Below, in pieces: positions 28,495-50,866 of a stretch of DNA of 64,000 bases. The DNA comes from Nitrospirota bacterium (lineage in GTDB: Bacteria > Nitrospirota > Nitrospiria > Nitrospirales > Nitrospiraceae): NCBI GenBank assembly GCA_963701855.1, contig CAVPBK010000004.1, positions 96,001 to 160,000 of the forward strand, read 5' to 3'. Under the pieces are notes generated by a model. It was not told the DNA's origin, did not search any database, and saw only the letters and a program-made list of their open reading frames with translations. Position 1 is the stretch's first letter. The number at the start of each line of letters is the position of its first letter. Both the position numbers and the translations under genes were made by a program.

Positions 28495-30238
28495 CTATTT
28501 CGCCGGCTTTCGCCCGATCAGCTGGAAGGTTTTTTTGAGCAGGGCAGAGGTTTTCGGCGTTTCGAAGAGCGAACGAAAAATGTCGTGAACGAGGGTGGTA
28601 TGGCCGGCAAGATCGGCTTGAAATTGCTTCACAGCGATCGGACGATCGGCTCTGTCATAGCCCATGCGGATGGCGCAACGTTCTAATTCCATCTGCTGAT
28701 CCGGGAGCGCATGCGTCTGTAGATCGTGCACCATCTGGAGTTTGTGCTCCACGTCTCGGAGAAACTGATAGGCACGGGTCAGATCGGTCCGTTGTACTCT
28801 TGACAGAATACCGGCCCTCTGAAGCCGCACCAACGAATCGAGAGTGCCCCGGCCCAGAATTCCAGGCAGCCGCTGGCCGGCCAGCACTTGGATCGTTTGG
28901 ACGAGAAACTCGATTTCCCTGATCCCGCCGACACCGAGCTTGACGTTGCGTTGTTCATGTCCGCGCTCTGCCATCTTCGCGTCAATCCGCTCCTTGACCA
29001 ATCGGACCTCCTCCACGATCGCGAGCCCCTGTTCGACATCCGGGCGTTTCGATGAGGGCGCCAGCACAAAGGGCCGCACCATCTTGATGAACGATTTCCC
29101 GACCTCCTGCGACCCGGCGATGGGCCAGGCCTTCAGCAAGGCCAACCGTTCCCACACTTGTCCTCTCGTCCGATAGTACTTGGCATAGTCCTCAAGCGAG
29201 CGAGTGAGCTGCCCCACCGATCCCTCCGCCCGCAAACGGAGGTCCACGCGATAGACGTATCCTTCATGGGTCTGCGCGGTCAGCGCCCTCGTCAGCTCCC
29301 GCGCGAGAATTTCAAAGTATTCTTCATTGGATAACCCGCGCTGCTCAGAGCTCTGTGCCTTCCTGCGTCCGGATGCGGCCGGCCTGGTTTCTCCCTCATG
29401 GGACTCACAGACATAGAACACATCTACGTCGGAGCTGTAATTGAGCTCGTGTCCACCCAGCTTCCCCATCGCAATGACGGTGAAGCCCGTCTCCACCCAT
29501 CGCCTCTGCCGATTCTTGTGCATGGGAATGCCGTGCCGGGTCCGTAGATCGCTATCCACAATGCGATAGGCGGCATGGATAGAGACCGCGGCCAGGTCCG
29601 AGAGAGAGGCGGTTGTTTCCACCACATCGGCTAATCGGAGGAGGTCGCGCACGCCGATGCGTAACATCTCTCGACGATGGAATCGTCTGAGCGCATCCAA
29701 CTTGAGTTCCGTGGCGACGACATTCTCCAAGCTTTGCCGGATCGTGCGTTCCATCCCCGCCCTGGTCGGAGCAGTGGACAGCACATTCTGTTGGGCCAGC
29801 CAGTACAGCAGCAGGGGATCGCGGACGAGGGTAAAGGCAAGCGCGTCGCTGTTCCCAAAAATCGTGCACACCAGATCCAGCATGCGGGGAGCGCTGCGCA
29901 GGTATTCCAACACGGCCGACCGGCTGACTCCGCTTGCAAGCCAGCGTTCCCAATGATTCAACGCCTGATCGGGGTCGGCGGTCCGCCCAATGGCCTCAAG
30001 CAATGCAGGCAGGATGTCTGCCAACTGATGCCGCTGGTGTGAGTCGCCAGCCATCGACTGCAGATTCGCATCGGCATCCTGAATGCGGTGGAGTCCGTAC
30101 GGTTGAAGAATCGCTTCAAGTCGGGCCGGTTCCAGCTCAGGCGCTAAGAGGATCGGAGTCGGATCAGGACGAGCAGCCCACTCAAGCTTCGGAACGGCAC
30201 AATAGCTGCGGCACGGGCTTCTTGGGGCGAGTGGTCAT
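28495..30238 (-). CDS. glnE: GlnE-type nucleotidyltransferase, single (adenylyl-removase-like) domain; probable frameshift near the N-terminus
   Basis: AMGKLGGHELNYSSDVD, RVDLRLR.EG, WERLALLKA, NVKLGVGGIREIEF, LRDVEHKLQ. The frame stays open upstream of 30054, and the nearest ATG (30238) is out of frame. Confidence 0.85.
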
Positions 30239-30305
30239 AGGGCGGGCATTATACGCACACCTTGACGCTCGCACAACGAACCCCGCTTCGGCTATACTCC
30301 GAGCC

Positions 30306-32587
30306 ATGATGGATGGGCTTGGATCACGCGAGTCGATCATCAAGACCCTGGTGTCCCTCTGTCCTGATGTCGATGATGAGGTACTCCAGGACTTCGTGTC
30401 TCGGATGGACCCCGAGTACTTCGAGACGGTTCCAACCAGACACCATCGCACACCATATTCAGCTTGCCAGCCGGCTCACGCCGGACCATCCCTGCGAATT
30501 TTCGGTGATCGACAAACAAGCAGGGCCGATCGGAAATCAGCATCGTCGCCTACGATTACTTCTCGGAATTCGCCGCCATCTGCGGTGTGCTCTCGGCCTT
30601 CGGACTCAATATCGAAGAAGGACGGATCTATACCTTTATGGGGGCCACGCCCGCTCCCTCACCGCGCCGAAAGGCTCCCTCGACGGTCGGCAGACCTAAA
30701 GGCCGGCCCGGCCTCAGCCGCAAGAAAATCGTCGATGTCTTCCTGGTGCATCCCATAGACCGCACAGGCTTTCCCTCGCCGCAGCACAATGCCCTCAGAC
30801 AGACCGTCAGCGAGATCGTGCAACTGCTGGATGCCGGTCAGTTTGAAGAGGCGCGTCAATATGTCAACCGCCGGCTCGTCGAACGATTGGACAAGCAGCG
30901 GAGCGCCTTCACCGGCTTGCTCGATACGGTGCAGATTACCTTCGACAATCGCCAATCGCCGACAGATACGATCATGGACATCCAATCGGATGATACTCCG
31001 GCCTTCCTCTATGCGCTTGCGAATGGCTTGGCCATGCGCAACATCTACATTACCAAGGCCCAGATCGAATGCGACGGCGCCAAGCTGCACGATCGTTTCT
31101 TTGTCAGGAATCGCGATGGACAGAAACTGCTCGACTCCGCCGATCAGCAGCTACTGCGGCTGACCGCCGTGCTCATCAAACAATTCACGCATGCCTTGAC
31201 CTGGGCGTCCGACCCGGCTAAGGCACTGGCATCGTTCGACCAATTCCTGGATCTCATCGTGAAAGACCAGGGCAAGAGACGGCAAGAGCCAGGCGCTCGA
31301 CTTCATCAGCGATAAAAAAATATTTCCGTTGCTCGCGCAACTGCTCGGCGCCAGCGATTTCTTGTGGGAGGATTTTCTCCGACGCCAGCACGATAACCTC
31401 CTTCCGTTGCTCACAGAATACCGGGATGCACCCCTGATCAAACCGCAGGCAACCCTCCGAAAAGAGCTCGACCGTCTGGTCATGCGAGCCAAAACAGACG
31501 AAGCGCGAAAGGACGCGCTTGAACCGGTTTAAAGACCGTGAGATGTTCCGGATCGACATCAAACATATCGTCGAGCCCTCGAGCAATTTCCCTGACTTTT
31601 CGCTGGCGCTCACGGAACTGGCGGAAGTCATCATGGAACGGAGCATCGTAGATTGCAGCGCCAAGCTGGAGAAATCTTACGGGCGCCCACAGCTCGCCAA
31701 CAAGAAGCCCTGCCCCTTTGCCGTCCTGGGCCTGGGAAAATTCGGAGCGCGAGAGCTTGGCTATGCATCGGACATCGAGGTCCTGTTCGTCTACGGCGGA
31801 TCGGGCAGCACAAGCGGTATAGATGGAATTGAGAACAGCGAATACTTCGAGCGGCTGGCCCAGGAACTCCTGGGGTGGATCGAAGCCAAGCAAGAAGGCA
31901 TCTATCGCATTGATGTCCGGCTTCGACCGCACGGAGGCAAGGGCGCGCTGGCCAATGCGTTCGAGGAGGTCTGTCGCTACTACAGTCCAACCGGATTCGC
32001 TTGCCGCGCCGTTCGAGCGGCAAGCCCTGATCAAGTTACGGCATATCGCCGGCGATTCCGCGCTGGGGCATCAACTGGAAACACACCGAGACTCCTTCGT
32101 CTACGGAGTAGCTCCCTGGGACATTCCCGCAGCACTGGAACTCCGGAGACAACAGCTCAGACAAATGGTCGCGCCTGGAAAGGTCAACGTGAAATATAGC
32201 GCGGGAGGACTCATCGACATCGAATATGCCGCGCAATACCTGCAAGTGATGCATGGCCACAACCACCCGAGCCTCCGCACACCGAATACCCTGCAGGCAC
32301 TCGCCGCACTGGTCAATGAGGGACTGATCACACGCACCGATGGAGCAGGCCTCCGGAAAGCCTACATCTTCATCCGAATGTTGGTCAACGGATTGCGCAT
32401 GGTCAGGGGAAACACCAAGGATCTTGTGCTCCCTCCTTCCGATTCGGAAGAGTTTGTCAGTCTTGCCCGCCGCATCGGCTACACGAGAGACGATTGGCGA
32501 GCCGGCGCTCGCGATTTGCAGTCAGATATCGAGCAGCATATGACACTCACCAAGCCGTTCTTTGAGCGGACGTTCGGAGCGTTATGA
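30306..32587 (+). CDS. ACT-domain-fused GlnE adenylyltransferase-like protein (about 5 apparent frameshifts)
   Basis: Consecutive frames give ACT-like segments (AICGVLSAFGLNIEEGRI; DTPAFLYALANGLAMRNIYI...DRFFV), then GKFGARELGYASDIE, IDVRLRPHG, FERQAL, VKYSAGGLIDIEYAAQYL. Shifts near 30427, 30525, 31277, 31520 and 32000. Confidence 0.8.
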
Positions 32588-33494: not shown

Positions 33495-35058
33495 TCAGCT
33501 AGACTGCGGTCGAGTCATCCCAAACTGCTTCATCCGGCTGCGCAGGGTGCCGGGATTTAGCCCCAAACGTATCAGCCGCTCCATTGGGACCTTCGATGCG
33601 CCAATTCGTCAGTGTGAGAGTCTGCAGAATATGCTGGCGTTCGAGTTCTTTGAGGTCGGCTGATAGCGGCGCTGTGAAGGATGAGTCCTGCGAACCTAAG
33701 ACATGTTCGTCGATTCGCAATACCGGCTCACGAGAGAGAATCATCGCTCGTTCAATCACATTTTCCAGCTCACGGACGTTGCCAGGCCAGGTGTAGCGAA
33801 TCAACCGTTCTAGAGATTCCTGGTCGATATCCTTGCACGAACGTCCGAGTTTCACGCAATATTGTTTCAGGAAATGTCGAGCCAATATGGGGATATCCTC
33901 CGGGCGATTCCTAAGTGGAGGCACGGCGATTGGAAAGATATTCAGACGATAAAATAGATCGGCGCGGAACGTACCGTCTTTGACGGCGGCAGGCAAGTTG
34001 CGATTGGTGGCGGCTATCACACGAACATCTACACGAATGGGCTGTTTCCCACCCAGACGATCAATCAGGCCATCTTGCAAGACTCGTAACAACTTGGCCT
34101 GTGTCTCCAAAGGCATTTCACCAATTTCATCCAAGAAGAGGGTTCCACCATGGGCCAGCTCAAATCGGCCTTCGCGTGCGCGGTCAGCCCCGGTGAACGC
34201 GCCTCGTTCATGGCCAAACAATTCACTTTCGACCAACCCGGCCGGAAAGGCGGCACAATTGACACAAACCATGGGTTTCGAGTGCCGCGGGCTCCAATCA
34301 TGGATCGCCTGAGCAATCAGTTCCTTGCCAGTTCCTGTTTCACCCGTAATGAACACGGTCGATGGGGTGGGCGCCACGTCGCGTGCAAGACCTATCACAT
34401 GCCGAAAGGCAAGGCTCTTCCCCACCAACGAGCCTATGTCCTTCGTGAGCTTCAGTTCTTCGGTGAGGTAGACGTTTTCCTTGGCAAGCTGGTCTCGCAA
34501 TCGATCGATCTGTTCGTATGCTTGGACATGATCGATCGCATAAGCGATCTGCATCGCCACTTGCGTCAAAAACTCAAGATCCCCTGGATCAGGAGCGCCC
34601 GACTCGATACTGCCGATATTCAGAATGCCTATACATCTGTCTCTCACGAGAAGAGGCAGATTGATCATTCGTCCGAGGCCTTCTTGGACATACCATTCGT
34701 CTTCGAGGAAGACTTGATCCCGCTTCAAGTCAGGACGGATGTGTACAGTTTTATGATCGTAAACCCAACCCATGCCGCTTCCAACATGTGGAACAATGGC
34801 ATTGCGTTGTAGCACCACCTGCGCCATCGTCGTTGCCATGACATAAAACATGAACCCGTCGGCCTCACGATCGTACTGTGTGACAGACGCCCGTGCCCAT
34901 GGAATGACCTTAGTAATCTCGGCGGTAATCGCCTCCCAGAGGCTGTGCATATCACGTTGCGAATTGAGCACAACAGCGACAGCCAAGAGGGCTCGATAGT
35001 TTATTTCAATCCGGTCCATAGGCTTGTCAATATTCTCTGATCGAACAAATTCAATCAC
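33495..35058 (-). CDS. GAF-domain sigma54-dependent enhancer-binding protein (FhlA/HyfR-like); 1-nt frameshift in the HTH at ~33570
   Basis: GETGTGKE, GAFTGA, FLDEIGE, WPGNVRELEN. The shifted frame restores HTH 'RLGLNPGTLRSRMKQFG'. Confidence 0.92.
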
Positions 35059-35213: not shown

Positions 35214-35654
35214 TTACTCAATCCAGATCAGATTGAGAGCAAGCGATTCTGCGGCATCCCGCTGTCTGACATCGGCGGTGACGAAGGGAATGGTTAGGCC
35301 TGAGGCAGCTTGGAATGTGAGTGCCGATGCGACATGCAAGGCATCAAGGGTTCTGAGCCCTATTCTCTGGACTAGCTCTTCGGCTTGGCTCAGCACGATC
35401 GGCCCCACTTCGACCAGCTCCCAGTAATCCCTGTCTTTGTGAAGTCTCGACCGGATGGCTAGAAAATCCCGCTGGGTTATCTCGCCGGTTGTCCGTCTGC
35501 GGCTGAGTGCGGATAGGGCTTCGACCGGAGCCAGGGCAGAAGTAAGAAACTGGTACCGTTGGAGTAGTTTTCTCGACGCAGATGACCCAGCCTCTTTCAC
35601 GTATCGTTTCACTAATACGCTGGTGTCGAAATAGGCCCAGCGGGCCGCCGTCAA
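35214..35654 (-). CDS. vapC: VapC PIN-domain toxin
   Basis: YFDTSVLVKRYV.E.GS, LRTLDALHVASA, FVTAD.RQ. Confidence 0.9.
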   Translation of the reverse strand: MTAARWAYFDTSVLVKRYVKEAGSSASRKLLQRYQFLTSALAPVEALSALSRRRTTGEITQRDFLAIRSRLHKDRDYWELVEVGPIVLSQAEELVQRIGLRTLDALHVASALTFQAASGLTIPFVTADVRQRDAAESLALNLIWIE

Positions 35655-35929
35655 CGGTCGCCCCTTTCCTCACAAACCGTCTGAGAGACCGGCATGCCAC
35701 GCACCGATCGAGGCCCCCACGAAGGGAGGGCGCCGCGCCTGGCTGCGGGACGCAAGAACCCAGCGGTTTCGAGTCTCTGAATGATGGATTCCGTCTCGTC
35801 GCCGCCACGAATGGGTTTCACCACAGCCAGCGGTCTTCCCCGCTCTGTCAACAATACTTCCTTCCCTCCTCGGACCGCCTTCATGAGCCGAGAGAACTGC
35901 TGGTTGGCTTCACGTAAACCGATCTGCAT
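35651..35929 (-). CDS. Phd/YefM-family antitoxin
   Basis: IGLREANQQFSRLM..V..G.EVLLTERGRPLAVV.P; overlaps the toxin start. Confidence 0.9.
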   Translation of the reverse strand: MQIGLREANQQFSRLMKAVRGGKEVLLTERGRPLAVVKPIRGGDETESIIQRLETAGFLRPAARRGALPSWGPRSVRGMPVSQTVCEERGDR

Positions 35930-35947
35930 AGACCCACCTCCTAGAAT

Positions 35948-35991
35948 GTAGTGACATCACTACTATAAATCCACCGCGGAGGCTCTGTCAA
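35948..35991 (-). promoter_or_regulatory. TA promoter (TTGACA-N18-TATAGT) with operator palindrome GTAGTGAcaTCACTAC
   Basis: The palindrome at 35948-35963 overlaps the -10/TSS region upstream of the antitoxin. Confidence 0.65.
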
Positions 35992-36055
35992 ATTCTCATT
36001 CGTCAGGAAGAGCCCCGAGTGCTAACCTGGAGGGATTTCACAAGCGAGAAATACA

Positions 36056-36093
36056 ACGGCGTCCGTCTCCTAATTATGGAAGACAGACGCCGT
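36056..36093 (-). terminator. Probable terminator downstream of glnA
   Basis: Imperfect stem acggcgtc.gtct.cc / gg.agac.gacgccgt with a T-rich tail on the minus strand. Confidence 0.5.
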
Positions 36094-36199
36094 ATTCTCA
36101 TTTACCTATGTCGAGAACCTTACTGAGTCGGGGGAGGCGCAGAACAGACGAGAAACGCGCTTTTCCGAGCCAGTCTCGTCCTTCTCGATTGAGCGAAAT

Positions 36200-37610
36200 C
36201 TACACATCGTAATAGAGGACATACTCGTACGGATGCGGCCGCAACCGCATAGGATCGACTTCCTTTTTGCGTTTGTAGCTGATCCAGGCTTCAATCAGGT
36301 CCTTACTGAAGACCCCGCCCTTGAGCAGAAACTGGTGGTCCTGTTCGAGGTTGCTCAATGCTTCGTCGAGGCTACCCGGCATCGTGCGAATCGCCGCCGC
36401 TTCCTCCGGCTCGAGATCGTACAGATCCTTTTCAGCCGGCTCACCTGGATTGATCTTGTTCTCGATCCCGTCCAACCCTGCCATGAGCATGGCGGAAAAT
36501 GCGAGGTACGGGTTCGCGGTCGGGTCGGGAAAGCGCACCTCGATCCGTTTGGCTTTCGGGCTTGGTGAGTACATGGGAATCCGGACGCCTGCCGACCGAT
36601 TCCTGCTGGAATAGGCCAGCAGGACCGGCGCCTCGATACCCGGGTGTGAGCCGCTTGTAGGAATTTGTCGTCGGATTCGTAAACGCCGCCAGCGCCGGAG
36701 CATGTTTCAGGATGCCTCCGATATAGTAGAGACAGAGTTGCGAGATGCCGGCATATTCCTTCCCCGCAAATAGGGGCTTCCCATCTTTCCAGATGCTTTG
36801 ATGCGTATGCATGCCGGTCCCGTTGTCCCCAAAGATCGGCTTGGGCATGAAGGTCGCAGTTTTGCCATGGCGGCGGGCCACGTTCTTGACGATGTACTTG
36901 TACATCATCAATTGATCTGCTGTTTTGACCAGCGACCCAAATCGGATATCGATTTCCGCCTGGCCTGCCGTCGCCGTCTCGTGGTGATGTTTCTCAACGG
37001 AAATCCCGACCTTTTGCATCTCCAGGACCATCTCGCTGCGGATATCCTGTTGCGTATCGGTTGGCGGGACCGGAAAGTAGCCTTCCTTGTGACGGATTTT
37101 CCCGCCCAAGTTGTGGCCTTCCTGCCCGATGTTCCAAGCGCCTTCTTCGGAATCGATGAAGTAGTAGCCGCTGTGGCCCGTCTGATCGTACCGGACATGA
37201 TCGAAGATGAAGAACTCCGCCTCCGGACCCCAGTAGGAAGTATCGCCGATCTTCGTGCTCTGGAGATATTTTTCCGCCTTCTGCGCCACAAACCGCGAAT
37301 CACGATCATAGGGCTCTCGCGTAATCGGATCGACAATGTTACCGACGAGGCTCAGTGTCGGAACCGCACAGAACGGATCGAGACAGACCGCGGACGAATC
37401 GGGGATCATCAGCAGATCGCTGTCGTTGATGGCTTTCCAGCCCCGGATTGATGAACCGTCCAACCCGGACCCATCCTTGAACAGCCCTTCAGTCAGCTCT
37501 TCCACGGGAATCGAGAAGTGCTGCCAGGTGCCGATCAGGTCCACAAACTTCAAGTCCACCATCTGGACTTTATGCTTCTTCGCAAACTCCAATACCTCGC
37601 GGGGATTCAT
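36200..37610 (-). CDS. glnA: Type I glutamine synthetase (apparent 1-nt frameshift at ~36635)
   Basis: [50 protein letters not shown], adenylylation site DLYDL. Confidence 0.97.
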
Positions 37611-37634
37611 TCCGATCCTCCTTATAAACCCAAT

Positions 37635-42201
<4,567 letters not shown>

Positions 42202-42434
42202 ATTTGCATCCTTTCATCCCTTGGTTCAGGACGAGGTTGACTATACGTTCGTTGAATTGTTCTAAGCGGCCCCCCTGGTTGACTCACGCTCCCTCTTCGT
42301 CGGGTTAGGGCTGTGGCGCGCGCTGGCTCAGCCCCTCATAGTTTTGTTGTGCCAAAAATTATCGCTTTCAATCCCGTCATGGTCTACCGACTGCGCATCG
42401 GCGCGGCACAGTTGCTGGCTCATTTCGTGACGGA

Positions 42435-42462
42435 TCCCTTCGTGGACTAGTCCACGAAGGGA
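42435..42462. other. Perfect 28-bp palindrome between the porin gene and amtB
   Basis: TCCCTTCGTGGACT|AGTCCACGAAGGGA. Confidence 0.8.
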
Positions 42463-42502
42463 CCGGCATATCACAATTCAACTGACTTCCGTCTCACTAC
42501 AC

Positions 42503-43888
42503 TTAGAACATATACGCGACTGAGAATCCCAGGGTGTTTTGAAAGTTCGCTGCTTGAGTGCCCTTCAGGTAGACATTATGATCTGCATGGTCATATCGAT
42601 ACTCGACCCTTGTCTGCAAGGCTGGAGCCGGCTTCCACTGGAGTGTAAAGGTCGTCTCCCAAGCGGTCAGGCCGTTCCCATTCACAAAAGGGTTGTTAGT
42701 GATAGTGGGTAAGGTATTTTGCGTGACAGTGTTGCCGGAAACAAAATTCTGACCCACACCATTACCGGCGCAGGTATTGGTGTTGCCAACTGTGTTAAAA
42801 CCTCCACCGCAGGCACGGGATCCACCGGCATCCTCCCAGATTTCTCCACGAGCCCTGAAACTGAAGGCATTGGGCTTCGTCTGATCATTAAAGTCATGGA
42901 TCAAATAGGCGACAAATCCGTTCCAGCGGCCATTACCGGAAGGATTACTCGGTGTGCCACCAGGACCGACGAGTGGGCTCGCATGACTTTCATTCCCGTA
43001 ATAGGGCTCCAAGATGAGGGTGGTGGTGTCGACAGGCTTGATCGTGATGATCGCGCCAGTCACCACCCGCTTGGCGGTAGGATCGCACCCTGCGGTGCCG
43101 CTCTGACAGATTCCGACCCCTGCAACTGTTCCATTATTATTTCCATTACCCTGTTCCGGTCCATAAGACCCGAAGAAACTGATGCCGAACTTTTCATGCG
43201 GCGTCAAGGCCACGAGGTATTCGAACGATTTGCCCCTGTTGTTGTCTTCGACGTTGTCCCACCCGTTGATCAATCCGATGGACGCCGTCGCCCACTTCGC
43301 AAACGGGTAGGTAAACCGGATACCGGTGGTCGTGAAGGCTTGGCTCAGACCGAACATCATGGTGCGTGAAAAGTTGGGATTCTCCCATGCGTTGATCACT
43401 TCATACCCGATCAAGGTGTTGATCTTTCCTGCTTGAATCTTCAAGCCGTTGCCGATCGGGGCGATGTACTCTGCATACATCTCCTGCGTATCCAGTTCGG
43501 TATTGTCATTACCTGGTTGGAAATTTGTGCGAGCACGCGAGAACCTGGCATCGGTTCCAAAATTGATCCGCGCCCGAAAGCCCACCCGATCCATGCCGCT
43601 GCCTGAGGCATTGGCCGGCCGTTCAAATACAAGCTGCGTCAAATTCGCCATGAATGAATTGGCCGCTGTGTCGAAAATACGCAGTTGATTAATGTTATTG
43701 TACGGATTATTGAAATTCTGTGTATAGGATGTCAGCACGGTCCCGGAGATCTGAAAACCCATCTTATCCCAGAGGGCTTTGGCATCATCCGTAGTGGCCA
43801 CTTGGGCAAATACCGAGTGGCTGCCAAGCAGTGAGACAAGCGCGCACATGCTTATCCCTATTCCGATACGTTTACTTGCTGACTTCAT
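42503..43888 (-). CDS. Putative outer-membrane beta-barrel porin (BBP2/DUF1597-like)
   Basis: Signal peptide; 'GKINTLIGYEVI....N.NFSR', 'NGWD', 'RVEYRYD'; C-terminal Phe; RBS GAGGAGG. Confidence 0.8.
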   Translation of the reverse strand: MKSASKRIGIGISMCALVSLLGSHSVFAQVATTDDAKALWDKMGFQISGTVLTSYTQNFNNPYNNINQLRIFDTAANSFMANLTQLVFERPANASGSGMDRVGFRARINFGTDARFSRARTNFQPGNDNTELDTQEMYAEYIAPIGNGLKIQAGKINTLIGYEVINAWENPNFSRTMMFGLSQAFTTTGIRFTYPFAKWATASIGLINGWDNVEDNNRGKSFEYLVALTPHEKFGISFFGSYGPEQGNGNNNGTVAGVGICQSGTAGCDPTAKRVVTGAIITIKPVDTTTLILEPYYGNESHASPLVGPGGTPSNPSGNGRWNGFVAYLIHDFNDQTKPNAFSFRARGEIWEDAGGSRACGGGFNTVGNTNTCAGNGVGQNFVSGNTVTQNTLPTITNNPFVNGNGLTAWETTFTLQWKPAPALQTRVEYRYDHADHNVYLKGTQAANFQNTLGFSVAYMF

Positions 43889-43942
43889 GCGATCCTCCTC
43901 ATCCAATTTGGTGATTCGGTTACTTCCTTACTTCTCCTACCT

Positions 43943-43976
43943 CAACGTCATTGTCGCCACGCACGCCATTGTGCGT
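43943..43976 (-). promoter_or_regulatory. ANTAR-type dual hairpin, site 2
   Basis: Transcript ACGCAC-AAUGGC-GUGCGU then CGAC-AAUGAC-GUUG; hexaloops with A1/G4. Confidence 0.75.
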
Positions 43977-44161
43977 AACCGCCGGCCCCTACCAGTCCAC
44001 TCGGCTCTTACTTGCGCATCGATTCCCACCATCCTATGGACGCATACCACTACTCAGCAGCCATTCTTCCACAAAGGGTGTTTCTCGCCAATGAATGGTT
44101 GCTTTTCGGCTTTTCCCACCATTTGGTTCATCAACCATCGTGGTTCGTCAGGCCGAATGTG

Positions 44162-44256
44162 AATAAAATAAAACGTCCTCTAGCCCCACTGGGGCTGGAG
44201 GACGCCATTGTCCATTCCGAACTATATCTAGGCCGGTGGGAAACGCCGTTGTTCCC
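44162..44256 (-). promoter_or_regulatory. ANTAR-type dual hairpin overlapping an intrinsic terminator (attenuator), site 1
   Basis: GGGAAC-AACGGC-GUUUCCC, then GGAC-AAUGGC-GUCC whose 3' arm overlaps terminator stem CGUCCUC..GAGGACG followed by UUUUAUUUUAUU. Confidence 0.85.
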
Positions 44257-44303
44257 CTATGATCTACACAGGCCACACTTTGTGAGCCCTTAAACTCCGC
44301 GCC

Positions 44304-44332
44304 CTTATACCTGTCTCAGGAAAATCTGTCAA
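44304..44332 (-). promoter_or_regulatory. Sigma70 promoter of the porin-amtB-glnK-glnD-glnA operon
   Basis: TTGACA-N17-TATAAG directly upstream of the attenuator. Confidence 0.75.
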
Positions 44333-44479
44333 TGCTTATCTCGGACTACAGGCCGAAGGCTGAAGGTTGCAAACGTGGGAGCAACATTCCGGAGGCTGAA
44401 AGCTTCGGCCTTGCGACTTCCTTTGGCCTTCAGCCTATCTCGCCTTTCCCGCTCGATCTGTGCTAGATTTCCTCTACCT

Positions 44480-45514
44480 ATGGCTCTTTCACCTCAGCCT
44501 TCGCTCTTCCCAGCGGCTGCCCCGCGTTTCACGTTTCACGCTTTACGGTTCACGATTCCTCTGAACAGCATCCTGCTGGCCCTGCTCTGTGTAGTCGGCA
44601 CCGCCTGCGGCACGACCGCCCCGACCGGCAAAATCCTCTTTGAGGATCCTCGCGGATCCGTGTCCCTCCAGAAGATTTCCGACCCGTCGATTCAGGCCAA
44701 CCATCCGATCAGTCTGGAGCCGGCCCTACTGGCCCAGCTATTGACAGGCATACAGCTTCATGATGAAGGTCTTGGAGAACACCATGTCCGGGGCATTCAG
44801 ACTTTAATTGAAGGAAAAGCAGCTCTTACCTATCCCCTCTTTTCGGAAGACCAGGTCCAGTTCCTCGCTCCATTGATAGCAGAGGCATTACGTACGGCAA
44901 CCATTAATCAGTCTGTCGAGTTTCGTGTTGTGACAACGATAGAAGGTTCGAATAGATTTCAATCGCCGACCACGGAAACGACCACCGGTTCTCTCTATGC
45001 TTATGGGCGGCAGTTGTACGTCATCCTGACTCAATATAACTACAACCCGATGTTGGCGAACCTGGCCTTTGCCGAGCAAAGCCACCGATCACAGGACCCA
45101 CTCGATTATTCAGGCCTCAAGCATCGTACGCTGCGGTTCACTCCGAAAGCCGCGCTCCGGGCTGATAGTCCTGATCCGCCGACGATGGGAAAACCGACCG
45201 ACAGGTTTCTTGCCGTCGATTATCAACTGCTGCAACAGGCCTGGCGAAATCTCGAAGCCAAAAGGCAAGCTGCGCCTCAGGCGGAAGGCGAGGCGCTAGA
45301 AGCCGCTCGCGCAGCCGAAGCCCAGGCCCGGGCGGCCGAAGCTCAGGCTCGCACAGCCGAAGCCCAGGCCCGTAATACAGCCGAGGCCCAGGCTCGCGCA
45401 ACCGAATCCCAGGCTCGTAATACAGAGGCCCTGACCCAGGAGGTGGAGATCCTCAAGAGGCAATTGGAATCCATTCAAAAACAACTCGGCAACCAGAATC
45501 AGCAGAAAAAATGA
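44480..45514 (+). CDS. Putative lipoprotein with a C-terminal AEAQAR coiled-coil repeat
   Basis: Lipobox-like VGTAC; close paralog of 45625..46473; about 6 AEAQAR units. Confidence 0.75.
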   Translation: MALSPQPSLFPAAAPRFTFHALRFTIPLNSILLALLCVVGTACGTTAPTGKILFEDPRGSVSLQKISDPSIQANHPISLEPALLAQLLTGIQLHDEGLGEHHVRGIQTLIEGKAALTYPLFSEDQVQFLAPLIAEALRTATINQSVEFRVVTTIEGSNRFQSPTTETTTGSLYAYGRQLYVILTQYNYNPMLANLAFAEQSHRSQDPLDYSGLKHRTLRFTPKAALRADSPDPPTMGKPTDRFLAVDYQLLQQAWRNLEAKRQAAPQAEGEALEAARAAEAQARAAEAQARTAEAQARNTAEAQARATESQARNTEALTQEVEILKRQLESIQKQLGNQNQQKK

Positions 45515-45624
45515 AAGCTGCGGGCCCAGGCTGAAGGAGTTTAGGCTGAAGGTTTTGAAACGTCAGACTCCGGCCTTCAGTCTATCGACCTTCAGCCTGA
45601 ACCCTGTTAAATTCACTCCCACCG

Positions 45625-46473
45625 ATGACTCCTTCACCAAAGTATCAGGCAGGGAAACTGTCCTACAGTCGTGTGCTTCTGCCGGCCCTGCTCTGTGTAG
45701 CCGGCACCGCCTGCAGCATGACCGCCCCGACCGGAACAATCCTCTTTGAGGACGCTCGTGGATCCGTGTCGCTGCAGACGATTGCTGACCCATTGATTCA
45801 GGCCAGTCATCCGATCAATCTGGAACCAGCCCTTCTCGCCCAGCTATTGACAGGCTTAGAGATTCATGAAAAAGGGATTGGGCCCCATCGTCTTATTGTC
45901 GAGGGCTTTGCAGGACAGCCATCTACCTACCCTCTCTTCTCGAAAGATCAGATCCAGTTCCTCGCTCCACTGCTTGCGGAGGGCTTGCGTACGGCAACCG
46001 CCAATCAGTCTATCGAGTATCGTGTGGTGACGACGCAGGAAGGTTCGAATAGATTTCAATCACCGACCACGGAAACAACCGCCGGGTCTCTCTATGCCCA
46101 TGGCCGACAGCTGTACGTGATCCTCTCTCAATATCGCTACAACCCGATGCGGACGAACCTGAACATGGGCGATATCACTTACCGATCACAGGAACCACTC
46201 GATTATTCAGGCCTCAGGTACCGTACGCTGTGGTTCACTCCGAAAGCCGCGCTCCGAACCGATAGCCCGAATCCGCCGACCAAGGAAAAGTCGACCGACA
46301 GGTTTGTTGCCATCGAGTATCAGCTACTGGACCACGCGTCGCTAGAAGCAGCTCGTGCGGCCGAAGCCCGGGCTCGCTCCACAGAGGCCTTGGCTCAGGA
46401 GGTGGAAGCCCTCAAGCAGGAACTGGAATCCATGAAAAAACAACTCGGCAGCCAGAATCAGCAGCAAAAATGA
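45625..46473 (+). CDS. Putative lipoprotein (tandem paralog)
   Basis: AGTAC lipobox; shares HPI.LEPALLAQLLTG, QFLAPL.AE.LRTA, GSNRFQSPTTETT.GSLYA with the upstream gene. Confidence 0.8.
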   Translation: MTPSPKYQAGKLSYSRVLLPALLCVAGTACSMTAPTGTILFEDARGSVSLQTIADPLIQASHPINLEPALLAQLLTGLEIHEKGIGPHRLIVEGFAGQPSTYPLFSKDQIQFLAPLLAEGLRTATANQSIEYRVVTTQEGSNRFQSPTTETTAGSLYAHGRQLYVILSQYRYNPMRTNLNMGDITYRSQEPLDYSGLRYRTLWFTPKAALRTDSPNPPTKEKSTDRFVAIEYQLLDHASLEAARAAEARARSTEALAQEVEALKQELESMKKQLGSQNQQQK

Positions 46474-46541
46474 AGGCTGAGATCCGGGGCTGAATGGGGT
46501 AAGGCCGAAGGTCGGAGTCTGGCTTTTCGAAACCTTCAGGC

Positions 46542-48317
46542 CTACGAATTCCGGTAGCCGTTCGTGATCGGCATTCGTCGATCCTTCCCCAAGGCCCTGT
46601 GAGTGATCTTGATGCCGATCGGCGCCTGCCGGCGCTTGTACTCGCTGCCATCCACCATCGTCATGACCCGCGCCACCGTGGCGCGGTCGTACCCCGCTTC
46701 GACGATCTCTTCGAGAGACCGGTCTTCTTCCACATAGGCCTGGAGAATGGGATCGAGAATCTCGTAGGGCGGCAACGAGTCTTGATCCTTTTGATTGGGC
46801 CTCAACTCGGCAGTCGGCGGCCGATCGAGCGTCCGTTTGGGAATCACGAGGGTTGCGCCACGGAGGTTACGGAGCCGCGCCAGGTCATACACCATCGTCT
46901 TGGGCACGTCTTTGATTACGGCAAATCCGCCGGCCATATCACCATATAATGTGGCGTATCCCACGCTCATCTCGCTCTTGTTGCCGGTGGTGAGCACTAG
47001 ATGGCCGAATTTATTGGAGAAGGCCATGAGAAGATTGCCCCGGATGCGGGCCTGGAGGTTCTCTTCCGTCGTATCAGGCGCATGCCCCTCAAATGTCTCT
47101 GCAAGCGCCTGCCGATAGCGGTCGAACAGCGCCGTGATGGGAATCGTTCGGACGGAGATCCCGAGTCGTGTCCCCAATTCGGCAACATCGTCGTGACTGT
47201 CTTGCGACGTATAGGGCGACGGCATGAACAGACCCCACACGTTTTCGGCGCCGAGCGCATCGACGGCGAGCACAGCAGTCAGCGCCGAGTCCACTCCGCC
47301 GCTTAGGCCGATCACCACACGTGTAAATCCGTTTTTCCTCACGTAGTCGCGCACCCCCAGCGTGAGAGCCCGATAGACTTCCTCCAGCTGCTCCAAGACC
47401 GATGCCACATCGGGGACTGCGCGCACCCGCGTTTTTTGAACCGATGGAAGCGGCGCAGCGCAGACCTCCACCGCAGAGGCAACGCGCCGCGGCAAGAGCT
47501 TTTTCCGGCCGGTTCGTCTCGCCCGCGCAACCGCCTCCATATTGAGGTCGGCGACGATCAGATCTTCTTCAAAGGCTTTCCCCCGCGCAATCACCTCACC
47601 CTGGTGATTGAGAATCACACTGCTCCCATCGAAGACCAGTTCATCCTGACCGCCGACCGCGTTGGTATAGGTGAGCACCACCCCGTTTTCTCTCGCGCGG
47701 GTCGCCAACATCTGTTCGCGTACCAGGCTCTTGCCCAGATGAAACGGCGAGGCATTGATATTCACGATCACTTCGGCGCCTGCTGCCGCCTGCAAACCGG
47801 TCGGACCATCCGGCAACCAAACATCTTCGCAAATGTTGACGCCGACCACTGTGCCACGCAGACGAATAAGCGGCAGCCGCCGGCCTGGATGAAAATAGCG
47901 GCTCTCGTCGAACACACCGTAGTTCGGCAGGTACCACTTGCAATAGGTCGTGATGAGTTTTTGATCTGCGATGACCGCCGCCGCGTTGTAGAGTTCGTGT
48001 GCGCCGGCCTGCACCACCGATGAGCGAGCCGGTTTCGGATCTATTCCGTCGCTCTGGCTGACGTAGCCCACCACCGCGGCAAAGCCCCGACAGTGGCGGA
48101 CGACTTCCTGGAGCGCGCGGCGGTTGTCCGCGACAAAACGTGGCTTTAACAAGAGATCTTCAGGCGGATAGCCGGTGATCGCCAGCTCCGGGAATGCGAC
48201 CAAGTCGGCCTTCGCCTTCTTCGCCTCTCGCAGCCAAGCCGAGATCCGACGGACGTTCCCATCCAGATCCCCGACCGTCGGATTCATCTGCGCCATGGCG
48301 ATACGAAAAGTACGCAT
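46542..48317 (-). CDS. nadE: Glutamine-dependent NAD+ synthetase
   Basis: Nitrilase domain (FPELAITGYPPEDL, LPNYGVFDE.RYF, ICEDVW) plus SGGVDS, ENLQARIRG, TGNKSE, EYKRRQ. Confidence 0.97.
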   Translation of the reverse strand: MRTFRIAMAQMNPTVGDLDGNVRRISAWLREAKKAKADLVAFPELAITGYPPEDLLLKPRFVADNRRALQEVVRHCRGFAAVVGYVSQSDGIDPKPARSSVVQAGAHELYNAAAVIADQKLITTYCKWYLPNYGVFDESRYFHPGRRLPLIRLRGTVVGVNICEDVWLPDGPTGLQAAAGAEVIVNINASPFHLGKSLVREQMLATRARENGVVLTYTNAVGGQDELVFDGSSVILNHQGEVIARGKAFEEDLIVADLNMEAVARARRTGRKKLLPRRVASAVEVCAAPLPSVQKTRVRAVPDVASVLEQLEEVYRALTLGVRDYVRKNGFTRVVIGLSGGVDSALTAVLAVDALGAENVWGLFMPSPYTSQDSHDDVAELGTRLGISVRTIPITALFDRYRQALAETFEGHAPDTTEENLQARIRGNLLMAFSNKFGHLVLTTGNKSEMSVGYATLYGDMAGGFAVIKDVPKTMVYDLARLRNLRGATLVIPKRTLDRPPTAELRPNQKDQDSLPPYEILDPILQAYVEEDRSLEEIVEAGYDRATVARVMTMVDGSEYKRRQAPIGIKITHRALGKDRRMPITNGYRNS

Positions 48318-48424
48318 AGGACTTCACACCATCATGCAGGCGATCGAAGTTCCGCTGTGCACACAATAGGTTTTCTGCAGACTGTCAGATCCACAGCTTC
48401 AGAGGACTTCCTCATAGACCAAAC

Positions 48425-49690
48425 CTACCCACGCTGTTTTTCAGCCCGTTGGTCGAGCTCTCCGGCTAAGAGCACGGCTTCGGCTATCTCGCGCATTGAC
48501 TTCCTGAAATCCATACTTTGCCGCTGAATGAGTTTGAAGGCCTCTTCTTCAGTCAGCTTCTTCGAGCGCATCAGGTAGCCCTTGGCCCGTTCCATGAGCT
48601 TCCGAAGCGCCAGCGCTTCCTGCATCTCATGGGATTTCTCAATCAGAGTCGTATGCTCGATGGCAATGGCGGCCTGATTGGCGATGGCCTGGAGCAATTT
48701 GACCTCTTCGCTGGTGAACACGTGCGGAGCGGACGTATAGCTATTGATCACGCCCAACGCCTTATCCCGCACCATCATCGGTACCGAAAGCAATGAGCAC
48801 AGTCCTTCCTTCTTGGCCATATCCGGATACATATAGTCTCGCTCTAGGGAGACGTCGAGCACGATAATCGGCCGGCGGTCTTTCACGGCACGGCCACAGA
48901 TACTCTGCCCAACCTTGAGGTTCGGCTTGCGGCGATACTGTTCGCTGAGGCTTTGCGTCGCCGCAATCCGCAGTTCCCCGCTGGCCTCCTCCAAGAGCAT
49001 AATCGAGCAGATCTTGGAGTTCATCATTTGCGCGGTCATCGTCACCAGGAGTTCAAGCACGTCTTTGATCAACCGATTGGACGCCACTGTTTCTGAGACC
49101 TGCGACAACATTTCCACTTGCAAGGCTTTGCGTTGCATTTGATCGTAGAGCCGCGCATTCTCGATCGCTCCTCCGACTTGATTGGCGATCGTCGAGAGTA
49201 ATGCGATCTCATTGGGTTGATAGCGCTTTAGGCGCTTATGCTGGACGTTGATTACGCCGACCACTTCCTTTTTCGCCATGATCGGTACGGAGACAAAGGC
49301 TTGGTAGCGGTCTTCTGGAAGGTTGTGAAAGAACTTGAAACGTGGATCATCGCTCGCATTACTCGGAATCACGACGCGCATCCGTTCCTGAGCGACCCAC
49401 CCGGTGATGCCTTCTCCCAAACCGATTGTGATGCGGCCAATCAATTTCGGGTGAGGGTTTTTCGAAGCTCGTAGAATGAGTTCGTCCTGGCTATCCGACA
49501 AAAGATACAGGAGGCAGGCATCCGCTTTGGTGACTTCGACGACAACCTCGACGATATGCTTGAGAATGGCTTCGAGATCCAGTTGGTTGCTGATCGACGC
49601 AGAAATCCGATGGAGCACATCGACTTCGCGTGTTTTTTCGCGCAAGGCCTGTTGGAGATACGCAACAGATGGCGTGCGTTTGGTGGTCAT
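48425..49690 (-). CDS. GAF-GAF-ANTAR RNA-binding antiterminator
   Basis: Two GAF repeats (GEGITGWVA...VPI....VVGVINV; ICGRAV...VPM...LGVIN) and C-terminal ANTAR 'RKLMERAKGYLM....TEEEAFKLIQRQSM..RKSMREIAEAV'. Confidence 0.92.
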   Translation of the reverse strand: MTTKRTPSVAYLQQALREKTREVDVLHRISASISNQLDLEAILKHIVEVVVEVTKADACLLYLLSDSQDELILRASKNPHPKLIGRITIGLGEGITGWVAQERMRVVIPSNASDDPRFKFFHNLPEDRYQAFVSVPIMAKKEVVGVINVQHKRLKRYQPNEIALLSTIANQVGGAIENARLYDQMQRKALQVEMLSQVSETVASNRLIKDVLELLVTMTAQMMNSKICSIMLLEEASGELRIAATQSLSEQYRRKPNLKVGQSICGRAVKDRRPIIVLDVSLERDYMYPDMAKKEGLCSLLSVPMMVRDKALGVINSYTSAPHVFTSEEVKLLQAIANQAAIAIEHTTLIEKSHEMQEALALRKLMERAKGYLMRSKKLTEEEAFKLIQRQSMDFRKSMREIAEAVLLAGELDQRAEKQRG

Positions 49691-49717
49691 TGAGATTTAC
49701 CTTTGTGTAGGATCCCT

Positions 49718-50866
49718 TCAACGGACAGGATGCTTGCCTGACCGGCGGCCACTCAACGTTCGGTTCCCACGGACGTGTTTGCGCTTAAACCACGCAGCAC
49801 AAACCTGCTGCTCGATCGGCTGAATAACCACTTCCCCAATCCGCACTGGCCATACCCCGATCACCTGCCCCCCGATTACCTTCTTGTCATGTTGCATGGC
49901 GCCCCAGAGAGAGCTAAAGGATGCCTGTGAAACCTGTTCGGATAACCCGGCACGCTGCACCAAAATTTCGATCCGTTCGACAACATCTCTTCCACACAAG
50001 CCCATATGGCAAGCCAAATCCGCCTCCTGCACCAATCCAACCCCAACCGCTTCGCCATGAATCAACCCACGATAGCCTGAGAGTGACTCCAATGCATGTC
50101 CGATTGTGTGGCCGTAATTGAGAATGCGTCGGCGGTTCGACTCCCGCTCGTCCGAGGCAACCACATGCGCTTTGATTTCACAAGATCGTTTGATCGCGTG
50201 GATAACCGGCACTTCATCGAGTTTCAACAGCGCAGGAATCTCCCGCTCCAGAAAGGCGAAGAATTCTTCATCGGCGATTATGCCGTATTTAATCACTTCG
50301 GCAAGACCCGCAATCCACTCGCGACGTGGCAGGGTGCGTAGCGTGAGGGGATCGATCAATACCGCACGCGGCTGGTAAAACGCCCCGATAAGATTCTTTC
50401 CCAGCCGATGGTCTACGCCGGTCTTGCCCCCGACACTGGAATCTACTTGAGCCACAAGTGTGGTCGGCACTTGCACGAACGGAATTCCCCGTTGATAGAT
50501 TGCAGCCGCAAATCCGGTGACATCACCGATGACTCCGCCACCGAGAGCCAGCAACAGGGACTGACGTTCAAACTTGTGTCTGGCTAGCACATCGAGGATC
50601 CTGGCGATTGTGCCGAGCGTCTTTGTTCGCTCTCCCGGCGGCAGGATAATCGGAGTCGGATCATAGCCCGCCTTGCAAAGTGAGCGGAGAGTCCCGTGAA
50701 GATAACGGCTTGCCACATGCGTATCTGTGACCACCCCGATCTTCGGAGAAGCGGTAAGGGAACTAAGCCTATCACCCACTGTCGCTAGTACCCCAGGATA
50801 AAGGACGATGTCGTAGCTTCGCTCCCCCAAGTTCACCGGAACAATTTGTTCTGCCACACCAGCCAT
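49718..50866 (-). CDS. aroB: 3-dehydroquinate synthase
   Basis: ALGGGVIGD, PTTLVAQVDSSVGGKTG, LNYGHTIGHA, HGEAV. Confidence 0.97.
   Translation of the reverse strand: MAGVAEQIVPVNLGERSYDIVLYPGVLATVGDRLSSLTASPKIGVVTDTHVASRYLHGTLRSLCKAGYDPTPIILPPGERTKTLGTIARILDVLARHKFERQSLLLALGGGVIGDVTGFAAAIYQRGIPFVQVPTTLVAQVDSSVGGKTGVDHRLGKNLIGAFYQPRAVLIDPLTLRTLPRREWIAGLAEVIKYGIIADEEFFAFLEREIPALLKLDEVPVIHAIKRSCEIKAHVVASDERESNRRRILNYGHTIGHALESLSGYRGLIHGEAVGVGLVQEADLACHMGLCGRDVVERIEILVQRAGLSEQVSQASFSSLWGAMQHDKKVIGGQVIGVWPVRIGEVVIQPIEQQVCAAWFKRKHVRGNRTLSGRRSGKHPVR

Follow-up and report, generated by a model that had tools for sequence, protein, structure and literature searches.

A predicted ANTAR antitermination leader before the porin-amtB-glnK-glnD-glnA genes of a Nitrospirota bacterium, with a nearby GAF-GAF-ANTAR protein as its probable regulator

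Introduction

The ANTAR-type RNA switch is itself textbook material, and here we describe a probable example from a Nitrospirota genome (assembly GCA_963701855.1, contig CAVPBK010000004.1, positions 96,001 to 160,000 of the forward strand; this stretch of 64,000 nucleotides is the window, and positions below are its own). The element is a leader in front of the genes for a porin, AmtB, GlnK, GlnD and GlnA, and the candidate regulator is a protein with two GAF domains and one ANTAR domain, encoded close by. An earlier note, made by a model from the letters of the window, had proposed this pairing, and the present analysis follows it up.

Among described leaders, those of the Enterococcus faecalis eut genes likewise contain dual hexaloops in which the first loop base is A and the fourth is G (A1/G4), the second hairpin (P2) lying over a terminator (PMC3369931; Walshe et al. 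2022, PMC8934654). The eut regulator EutV has a receiver domain, whereas the protein of the window has a GAF-GAF sensor and keeps most of the RNA-binding residues. In Geobacter sulfurreducens, GnfK/GnfR (Ueki and Lovley 2010, PMC2995071) is likewise built on an ANTAR antiterminator, terminator-like signals are found in the glnK and amtB leaders, and the GnfR binding motif has the same AANGGC-type loop as the hairpins studied here. GnfR, however, is a phosphorylated response regulator within a sigma54 (GnfL/GnfM) cascade, while in the window we find two GAFs, no receiver and a predicted sigma70-type promoter. NasR of Klebsiella oxytoca is, like the protein proposed here, a one-component ligand-gated ANTAR antiterminator of nitrogen-assimilation genes (PMC7496416, PMC12591593); its NIT domain senses nitrate or nitrite and it controls one operon. 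The passages of PMC7496416 covered here name, as of 2020, only NasR and PAL as characterised one-component ANTAR proteins. Outside the ANTAR proteins, the best named match of the first GAF domain (GAF1) in sequence and structure is PtsP (EI-Ntr), whose sensing of glutamine and 2-oxoglutarate would suit the regulon (PMC13104625, PMC4848567); the output of PtsP is autophosphorylation, as against a predicted RNA binding here.

Ramesh et al. (2012, PMC3369931) predicted ANTAR elements before genes for ammonium transporters, PII, glutamine synthetase, urea transport and an NAD synthetase in other phyla, and Nitrospira is absent from the passages of that text and the seven supplements that were covered. 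ANTAR control of amtB/glnK/glnA-type genes is thus already described in other bacteria (Geobacter GnfR; Ramesh 2012). The earlier note knew of no description in Nitrospira, and literature searches, which left most subscription papers outside their coverage, found no description of ANTAR proteins or antitermination in Nitrospira or in complete ammonia oxidizers (comammox), and a 2025 review does not mention Nitrospira. The passages covered of PMC3369931 and of a 2020 paper list no characterised GAF-ANTAR protein, and nothing newer was found. What is new is the PtsP-like GAF sensor, the order-wide regulon, the long spacing of the hairpins, a second hairpin pair with no terminator, and the loss of the system in clade-A-like comammox.

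Results and Discussion

The leader and its alternative folds

The leader and the gene of its candidate regulator comprise the following features.

44304-44332, minus strand: predicted sigma70-type promoter (-35 TTGACA at 44332-44327, 17-nt spacer, -10 TATAAG at 44309-44304)
44238-44257, minus strand: ANTAR hairpin P1, 7-bp stem, hexaloop AACGGC, A1/G4 present
44214-44237, minus strand: P1-P2 linker of 24 nt (41 nt loop-to-loop)
44200-44213, minus strand: ANTAR hairpin P2, 4-bp stem, hexaloop AATGGC, A1/G4 present, mutually exclusive with the terminator
44165-44204, minus strand: predicted intrinsic terminator, hairpin 44204-44174 followed by a U-rich tract 44173-44165
48425-49690, minus strand: GAF-GAF-ANTAR regulator, 421 residues, with two GAF stretches and one ANTAR stretch by Pfam

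The promoter, the AACGGC and AAUGGC hairpins and the terminator whose 5′ arm overlaps P2 all lie where the earlier note had put them. Both hairpins have the 6-nt loop, the stem of at least 3 bp and the A1/G4 pair by which ANTAR targets are recognized, and the transcript is predicted to start near 44297. The 5′ arm of the terminator hairpin is made of the same bases as the 3′ arm of P2, and in silico the two folds exclude each other. By folding energy alone the terminator hairpin prevails (-23.6 kcal/mol versus -4.0 for P2), and the leader as a whole folds at -57.3 kcal/mol in the terminated form versus -47.1 with P1 and P2 forced; when the RNA is truncated at 44200, the end of P2, both hairpins fold in silico. 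Generic scanners missed the promoter and the terminator alike, the former because the consensus scanner requires a T at the last position of the -10 hexamer. A scan of positions 36000-50000 against Rfam, glutamine riboswitches included, gave nothing above the gathering score and two far-below-threshold matches (E 1.8 and 3.4).

When the whole genome is filtered for the combination of P1, P2 and a terminator that overlaps them, a single element is left, the leader of the amtB operon; each of five dinucleotide shuffles leaves none. P2 with a terminator alone is at chance level (7 in the genome versus 2-7 in the shuffles). Two tandem-hairpin scans of the genome gave four sites each, two of them within the leader itself; a looser two-loop search pattern was too noisy and was dropped. 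The genome has a single ANTAR gene, the one at 48425-49690. The genome is 4.3 Mb in size, 97% complete, and contains amoA and one Amt gene. Homologues bear Nitrospira or Nitrospirota names. According to the parts of Koch et al. (PMC6311188) covered here, comammox clade A uses Rh transporters and clade B uses Amt; since amoA and Amt are present and Rh is not, we infer that the host is a clade B comammox Nitrospira. Urease was not found in this genome, and urtA, cynS, nirA and the nitrate/cyanate binding protein have no close match in it, which fits the presence of one leader only.

Conservation, covariation and regulon in Nitrospirales

Elements were sought in the upstream regions of 129 fetched loci and in the window, with scripts and search patterns in which the stems are partly fixed, and only unconstrained pairs were counted as covariation; the genomes are kin, and the counts therefore overstate independence. 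About five rows (L038, L041, L076, L133, L143) were kept in the counts although P1 is there called as P2. The scan returned 83 distinct elements, 48 of them with P1. Loop A1/G4 and the closing pairs are kept over all 83 while the stems vary, and pairs 4-6 of P1, which the filter does not require, are formed in 45, 45 and 47 of 48, by base pairs of several types. In the terminator stem, compensatory change is found at 7 of 13 pairs among 39 P2-terminator sequences of similar length, hand-picked from 86; most of these lie in the inner stem that the pattern leaves free, where each pair has 3-15 double-sided changes. The earlier note would have abandoned its reading had the hairpins not been conserved in orthologous leaders; an alignment of 10 porin-amt leaders shows no change in the -35 hexamer, P1 or P2 (10/10), and the flanks diverge. 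Loop-to-loop spacing ranges over 35-53 nt with a mode of 41 (48 elements), so that long spacing is the rule in Nitrospirales.

An orthologue of the regulator, near full-length and with 67-100% identity, is present in 33 of 41 genomes sampled across the order, with fragments in two more. It was not found in the other six, one of which is 71% complete and five of which belong to a single family, f4. Elements precede nadE (36/53), the porin gene (21/26), a kinase gene of the urea cluster (9/16), genes for a nitrate/cyanate-type binding protein (5/5) and an FNT (nitrite) transporter (6/6), and less often nirA (1/4), amtB (2/19) and urtA (2/12). None was found before cynS (0/6), glnK (0/5) or the urea porin (0/12), which are mostly internal genes. 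In a locus of a more distant family (L178) the element stands immediately before glnA. The gene order aroB-regulator-leader-nadE, which is seen in many relatives, is probably the ancestral layout. The idea that amoA-positive relatives exchange amtB for the urea cluster was ruled out: the cluster sits as an insertion upstream of amtB, which still has a leader of its own.

Other arrangements were noted among the fetched loci. Before nitrate/cyanate-type ATP-binding cassette, FNT, cynS and nirA genes there are leaders with two serial terminators, each overlapped by a hexaloop hairpin (L039, L041, L043, L044, L045 and L058, just after glnA; also L175, L177 and L179). Some elements precede regulatory genes, namely those for a LuxR-type and then a Crp-type protein, or for a PAS sensor kinase and response regulator (L063:5355-6467, L069:391-1669, L064:495-2814, L033:10865-13731), which suggests a second regulatory tier beneath ANTAR. 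In two amoA-positive genomes a full element precedes the gene for a 285-residue alpha-carbonic anhydrase (L068:3339-4536 in G011, L061:5166-6383 in G014); the G011 element is on the strand opposite to amoAB, about 1 kb past these genes. These elements raise an unexplained link of nitrogen status to the handling of CO2 or pH.

The regulator

Pfam places two GAF domains and one ANTAR domain in the product of 48425-49690, and neither Pfam nor NCBIfam scans gave a receiver family, in agreement with the domain reading of the earlier note. The ANTAR domain scores 66.9 bits against a Pfam cut-off of 27.3, and aligns without gaps to EutV, Rv1626 and NasR. The RNA contacts of EutV are named in the parts of PMC8934654 covered here; five of them (R142, K143, K149, E160, M172) correspond to R363, K364, K370, E381 and M393, which are invariant in 14 homologues, and two are conservative exchanges (Y164 to F385, K147 to R368). 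With one contact lost, the tally is five of eight identical, two conservative and one lost, on a numbering in which two residues of the PDB chain are taken to be a tag. The predicted structure is confident per domain (predicted local distance difference test 85).

For GAF1 the top NCBIfam profile is PtsP (E 1e-21), followed by NifA (9e-17). A PDB search matched it to PtsP GAFs at 1.6e-23 and 2.2e-17, and it superimposes on the Acinetobacter PtsP GAF 3ci6 with a template modelling score of 0.86, a root-mean-square deviation of 2.1 Å and 31% identity; none of the structures matched has a bound ligand. In a search of a plasmid collection, PtsP is also top among the annotated matches. As far as PMC13104625 and PMC4848567 were covered, PtsP GAFs bind glutamine, which is inhibitory, and, in E. 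coli (Escherichia coli), 2-oxoglutarate, which is stimulatory. The earlier note gave the GAF ligand as unknown; because the best named relatives of GAF1 are the GAFs of PtsP, glutamine and 2-oxoglutarate now stand as lead candidates by analogy, a proposal that may be right as easily as wrong.

A search of 50% representatives was dominated by multi-GAF proteins, and seven of the 150 matches listed are close in length or identity. The GAF-GAF-ANTAR architecture is further seen in clusters in which Acidobacteriota and Elusimicrobiota are the most frequent phyla.

Joint loss of protein and RNA

Of 301 genomes of the phylum, 115 have an ANTAR gene; in a sister genus (g7) the figure is 8 of 29. All 20 ANTAR-less g7 genomes listed (of 21) have amoA, versus none of the eight ANTAR-positive ones. 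For AmtB, 15 of the 20 have no match, two have broken remnants and three have weak matches only, and by these gene contents the ANTAR-less g7 genomes would represent a clade-A-like comammox pattern. Decaying amtB remnants are visible in ANTAR-less amoA-positive genomes (L172:5622-6733 in G260, and contig C50 of G320), a loss caught midway.

The earlier note had asked for the co-occurrence of element and protein, and here scripted patterns were used for it. Within g7 the P2-terminator pattern is found in 8/8 ANTAR-positive genomes, with 2-5 matches each, versus 1/20 ANTAR-less ones, with a single match. It is also found in 11/11 ANTAR-positive genomes of the host family outside g7, in 5/6 of family f2 and in 2/2 of family f5, and in 0/3 of the regulator-less family f4, which keeps amtB. 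Altogether 26/29 ANTAR-positive versus 1/23 ANTAR-less genomes have a match, these being kin and not independent; a reversed-pattern control gave 3 matches versus 77. The lone exception, G320, has its match downstream of the urease genes; nothing recognisable as a gene follows it, and the element looks like a relic. No orthologue of the regulator was found in four closed ANTAR-less genomes. In 3/3 closed ANTAR-less genomes mapped, aroB abuts nadE, and the regulator gene and the leader are gone, while glnK is kept; ANTAR-less genomes also retain urtA (5/5 tested) and nadE.

Proposed mechanism and its alternatives

Conservation and covariation of the hairpins, the uniqueness of the element in its genome, the largely kept EutV residues and the joint loss of protein and RNA all support the ANTAR attenuation proposed in the earlier note, and the leader is very probably an ANTAR antitermination switch, run most likely by the nearby GAF-GAF-ANTAR protein. 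The sigma70-type promoter would give a leader of about 130 nt, whose strong terminator would fold by default and end transcription near 44165. Under nitrogen shortage, a dimer of the GAF-GAF-ANTAR protein would bind both hexaloops, that of P1 and that of P2, on the nascent transcript and keep P2 folded, so that the terminator is blocked and porin-amtB-glnK-glnD(-glnA) is transcribed. The start and stop of transcription, the binding of the protein, the direction of control and the length of the operon are predictions from sequence. The PtsP-like GAF domains would read the signal directly, as glutamine (off) and/or 2-oxoglutarate (on), and the protein would act as a general regulator of nitrogen scavenging in Nitrospirales.

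Several observations weigh against this proposal. The eut linkers are 5-12 nt long (PMC3369931, PMC8934654) versus 24 nt here; in the parts of these papers covered, a linker of 14 nt lowered induction (PMC3369931) and an extension by 20 nt abolished antitermination (PMC8934654). A curated actinobacterial ANTAR set accepted linkers of 2-25 nt (PMC8164766), and 24 nt is just inside that range. The EutV contact R177 is not kept, S398 standing in its place. The element pattern was unmatched in 2/2 ANTAR-positive genomes of family f20 and in 1/6 of f2, and in small-genome f2 lineages (L046-L051, L115-L128) the leaders between regulator and nadE mostly have a single AAAGGC-loop hairpin over the terminator and no P1, possibly a one-hairpin mode. 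The loss in g7 is probably one event, so that its 20 genomes are not 20 tests, and over all genomes there are perhaps two independent losses rather than 23. The linker beyond the eut range and the single-hairpin leaders would suit a terminator that is a constitutive dampener or is under some other factor, the hexaloops being left unbound by the ANTAR protein. Yet A1/G4 and the closing pairs are conserved despite the variation of the stems, and the elements disappear with the protein although urtA, nadE and, in f4, amtB persist, and we consider this explanation very improbable.

The ligand proposal has its own difficulties: GAF1 shares only 26-33% identity with PtsP GAFs, these are outscored by an uncharacterised GAF (3e0y) in the PDB search, a mycobacterial kinase GAF is level with PtsP in the plasmid collection, and Foldseek, ranked by E-value, is led by the cyclic-nucleotide tandem GAFs of phosphodiesterases (12-19% identity). 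The second domain, GAF2, is further from PtsP (E 5e-17) and yet conserved among homologues. The same switch might thus answer to another ligand (an ammonium-linked metabolite, a cyclic nucleotide, a redox or nitrite signal), or GAF2 might be a second input. We hold this to be unlikely, if a serious contender, for the targets are almost all nitrogen-scavenging genes, matching a nitrogen-status signal, and the NKFDE motif, the signature of cyclic-nucleotide-binding GAFs, is not evident by eye in GAF1 or GAF2. Some NifA GAF domains are gated by a PII partner protein, and the GAFs studied here might be gated in the same way with no metabolite involved, most plausibly by the GlnK or GlnK-UMP of the same operon. 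Both GAFs have NifA as their second-ranking profile, and glnK and glnD lie inside the regulated unit; PtsP, however, ranks over NifA in the profile, PDB and plasmid searches, and the retention of glnK in the mapped ANTAR-less genomes means that there is no co-loss. A complex prediction for the GAF-GAF dimer with a GlnK trimer scored 0.00 and counts for neither reading. Gating by PII seems improbable.

In its widest form, the proposal is that a stand-alone glutamine/2-oxoglutarate sensor is the master nitrogen regulator of Nitrospirales, acting purely by antitermination on long-linker targets with neither kinase nor sigma54. Clade A comammox would have lost the gene by deletion together with all its leaders, so that nitrogen starvation ceased to govern urea uptake as ammonia came to serve as an energy source; in clade B the brake on Amt and on the uptake of urea would persist. 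We offer this version tentatively and with more doubt than confidence. Nitrospira drive nitrification in soils, sediments and water treatment, and the presence or absence of ANTAR would predict a split in comammox physiology, in which nitrogen status gates the uptake of ammonium and urea in canonical and clade-B-like cells and the ANTAR system does not gate it in clade-A-like cells. With the regulator named, its regulon predictable and the list of ligands short, the proposal is tractable in vitro or in E. coli and does not call for genetics in Nitrospira.

A second hairpin pair before the porin gene

43943-43976, minus strand: second hexaloop pair, P3 (43976-43959) and P4 (43956-43943), 18 nt loop-to-loop, with no terminator

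The earlier note does not mention this pair. The fetched loci contain 31 distinct P3 sites, 60-80 nt before the porin start; at 27 of these 31 the P4 stem has at least 4 bp, and position 1 of the P4 loop is often G, not A. Where the first leader is followed by an inserted kinase-regulator pair, P3 and P4 remain beside the porin gene. Here 64 nt separate the P4 loop from the porin ATG, and neither hairpin overlaps the Shine-Dalgarno sequence (SD), which makes repression of the mycobacterial type unlikely. A general role in activating translation found no support: with the hairpins forced, the opening cost of the ribosome site falls by more than 1 kcal/mol in 7 of 27 leaders and rises in one, and in the window it goes from 4.8 to 5.5, which is no help. 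Our guess is that P3 and P4 form a second ANTAR site acting on translation or mRNA stability.

Genes of the cluster and neighbouring features

Pfam identifies the genes behind the leader as those for a BBP2 porin, AmtB, PII, GlnD and glutamine synthetase, and also identifies NadE.

42503-43888, minus strand: BBP2-family outer-membrane porin, the start being the ATG behind the SD at 43900-43886
40825-42201, minus strand: amtB (Pfam), the sole Amt/Rh family match of the genome
40385-40723, minus strand: glnK, PII (Pfam)
37635-40388, minus strand: glnD, PII uridylyltransferase (Pfam)
36200-37610, minus strand: glnA, in two frames, one base short near 36635 compared with a relative of 96% identity
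46542-48317, minus strand: nadE, glutamine-dependent NAD synthetase (Pfam), element-free upstream here and with an element in many relatives

The frameshift near 36635 in glnA, which the earlier note leaves unmentioned, is probably an assembly error. Intergenic gaps with hairpins lie between porin and amtB (301 nt) and between amtB and glnK (101 nt), and leader control may reach as far as glnA. The porin-amtB gap (42202-42502) contains a perfect inverted repeat, seen by eye, which is possibly a processing or stabilising site.

The earlier note had set antitermination in place of an NtrBC/sigma54 promoter. A simple pattern gave no sigma54-type -24/-12 motif on the minus strand of 35900-50000; the genome has 28 sigma54-activator matches, and additional control of the nitrogen genes by sigma54 at the DNA level may exist. 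On the 3′ side of glnA the minus strand encodes a GAF-sigma54 activator and a Phd/PIN toxin-antitoxin pair (33499-35058 and 35214-35929), and a similar activator follows glnA in loci L072 and L080. A GlnE-like region on the plus strand (29934-32587) is split over several frames, probably by assembly errors. Divergent from the leader, beside its promoter, two paralogous lipoprotein-like open reading frames (44375-45514 and 45625-46473, plus strand) match no Pfam family, and the pair accompanies the nitrogen cluster in many relatives.

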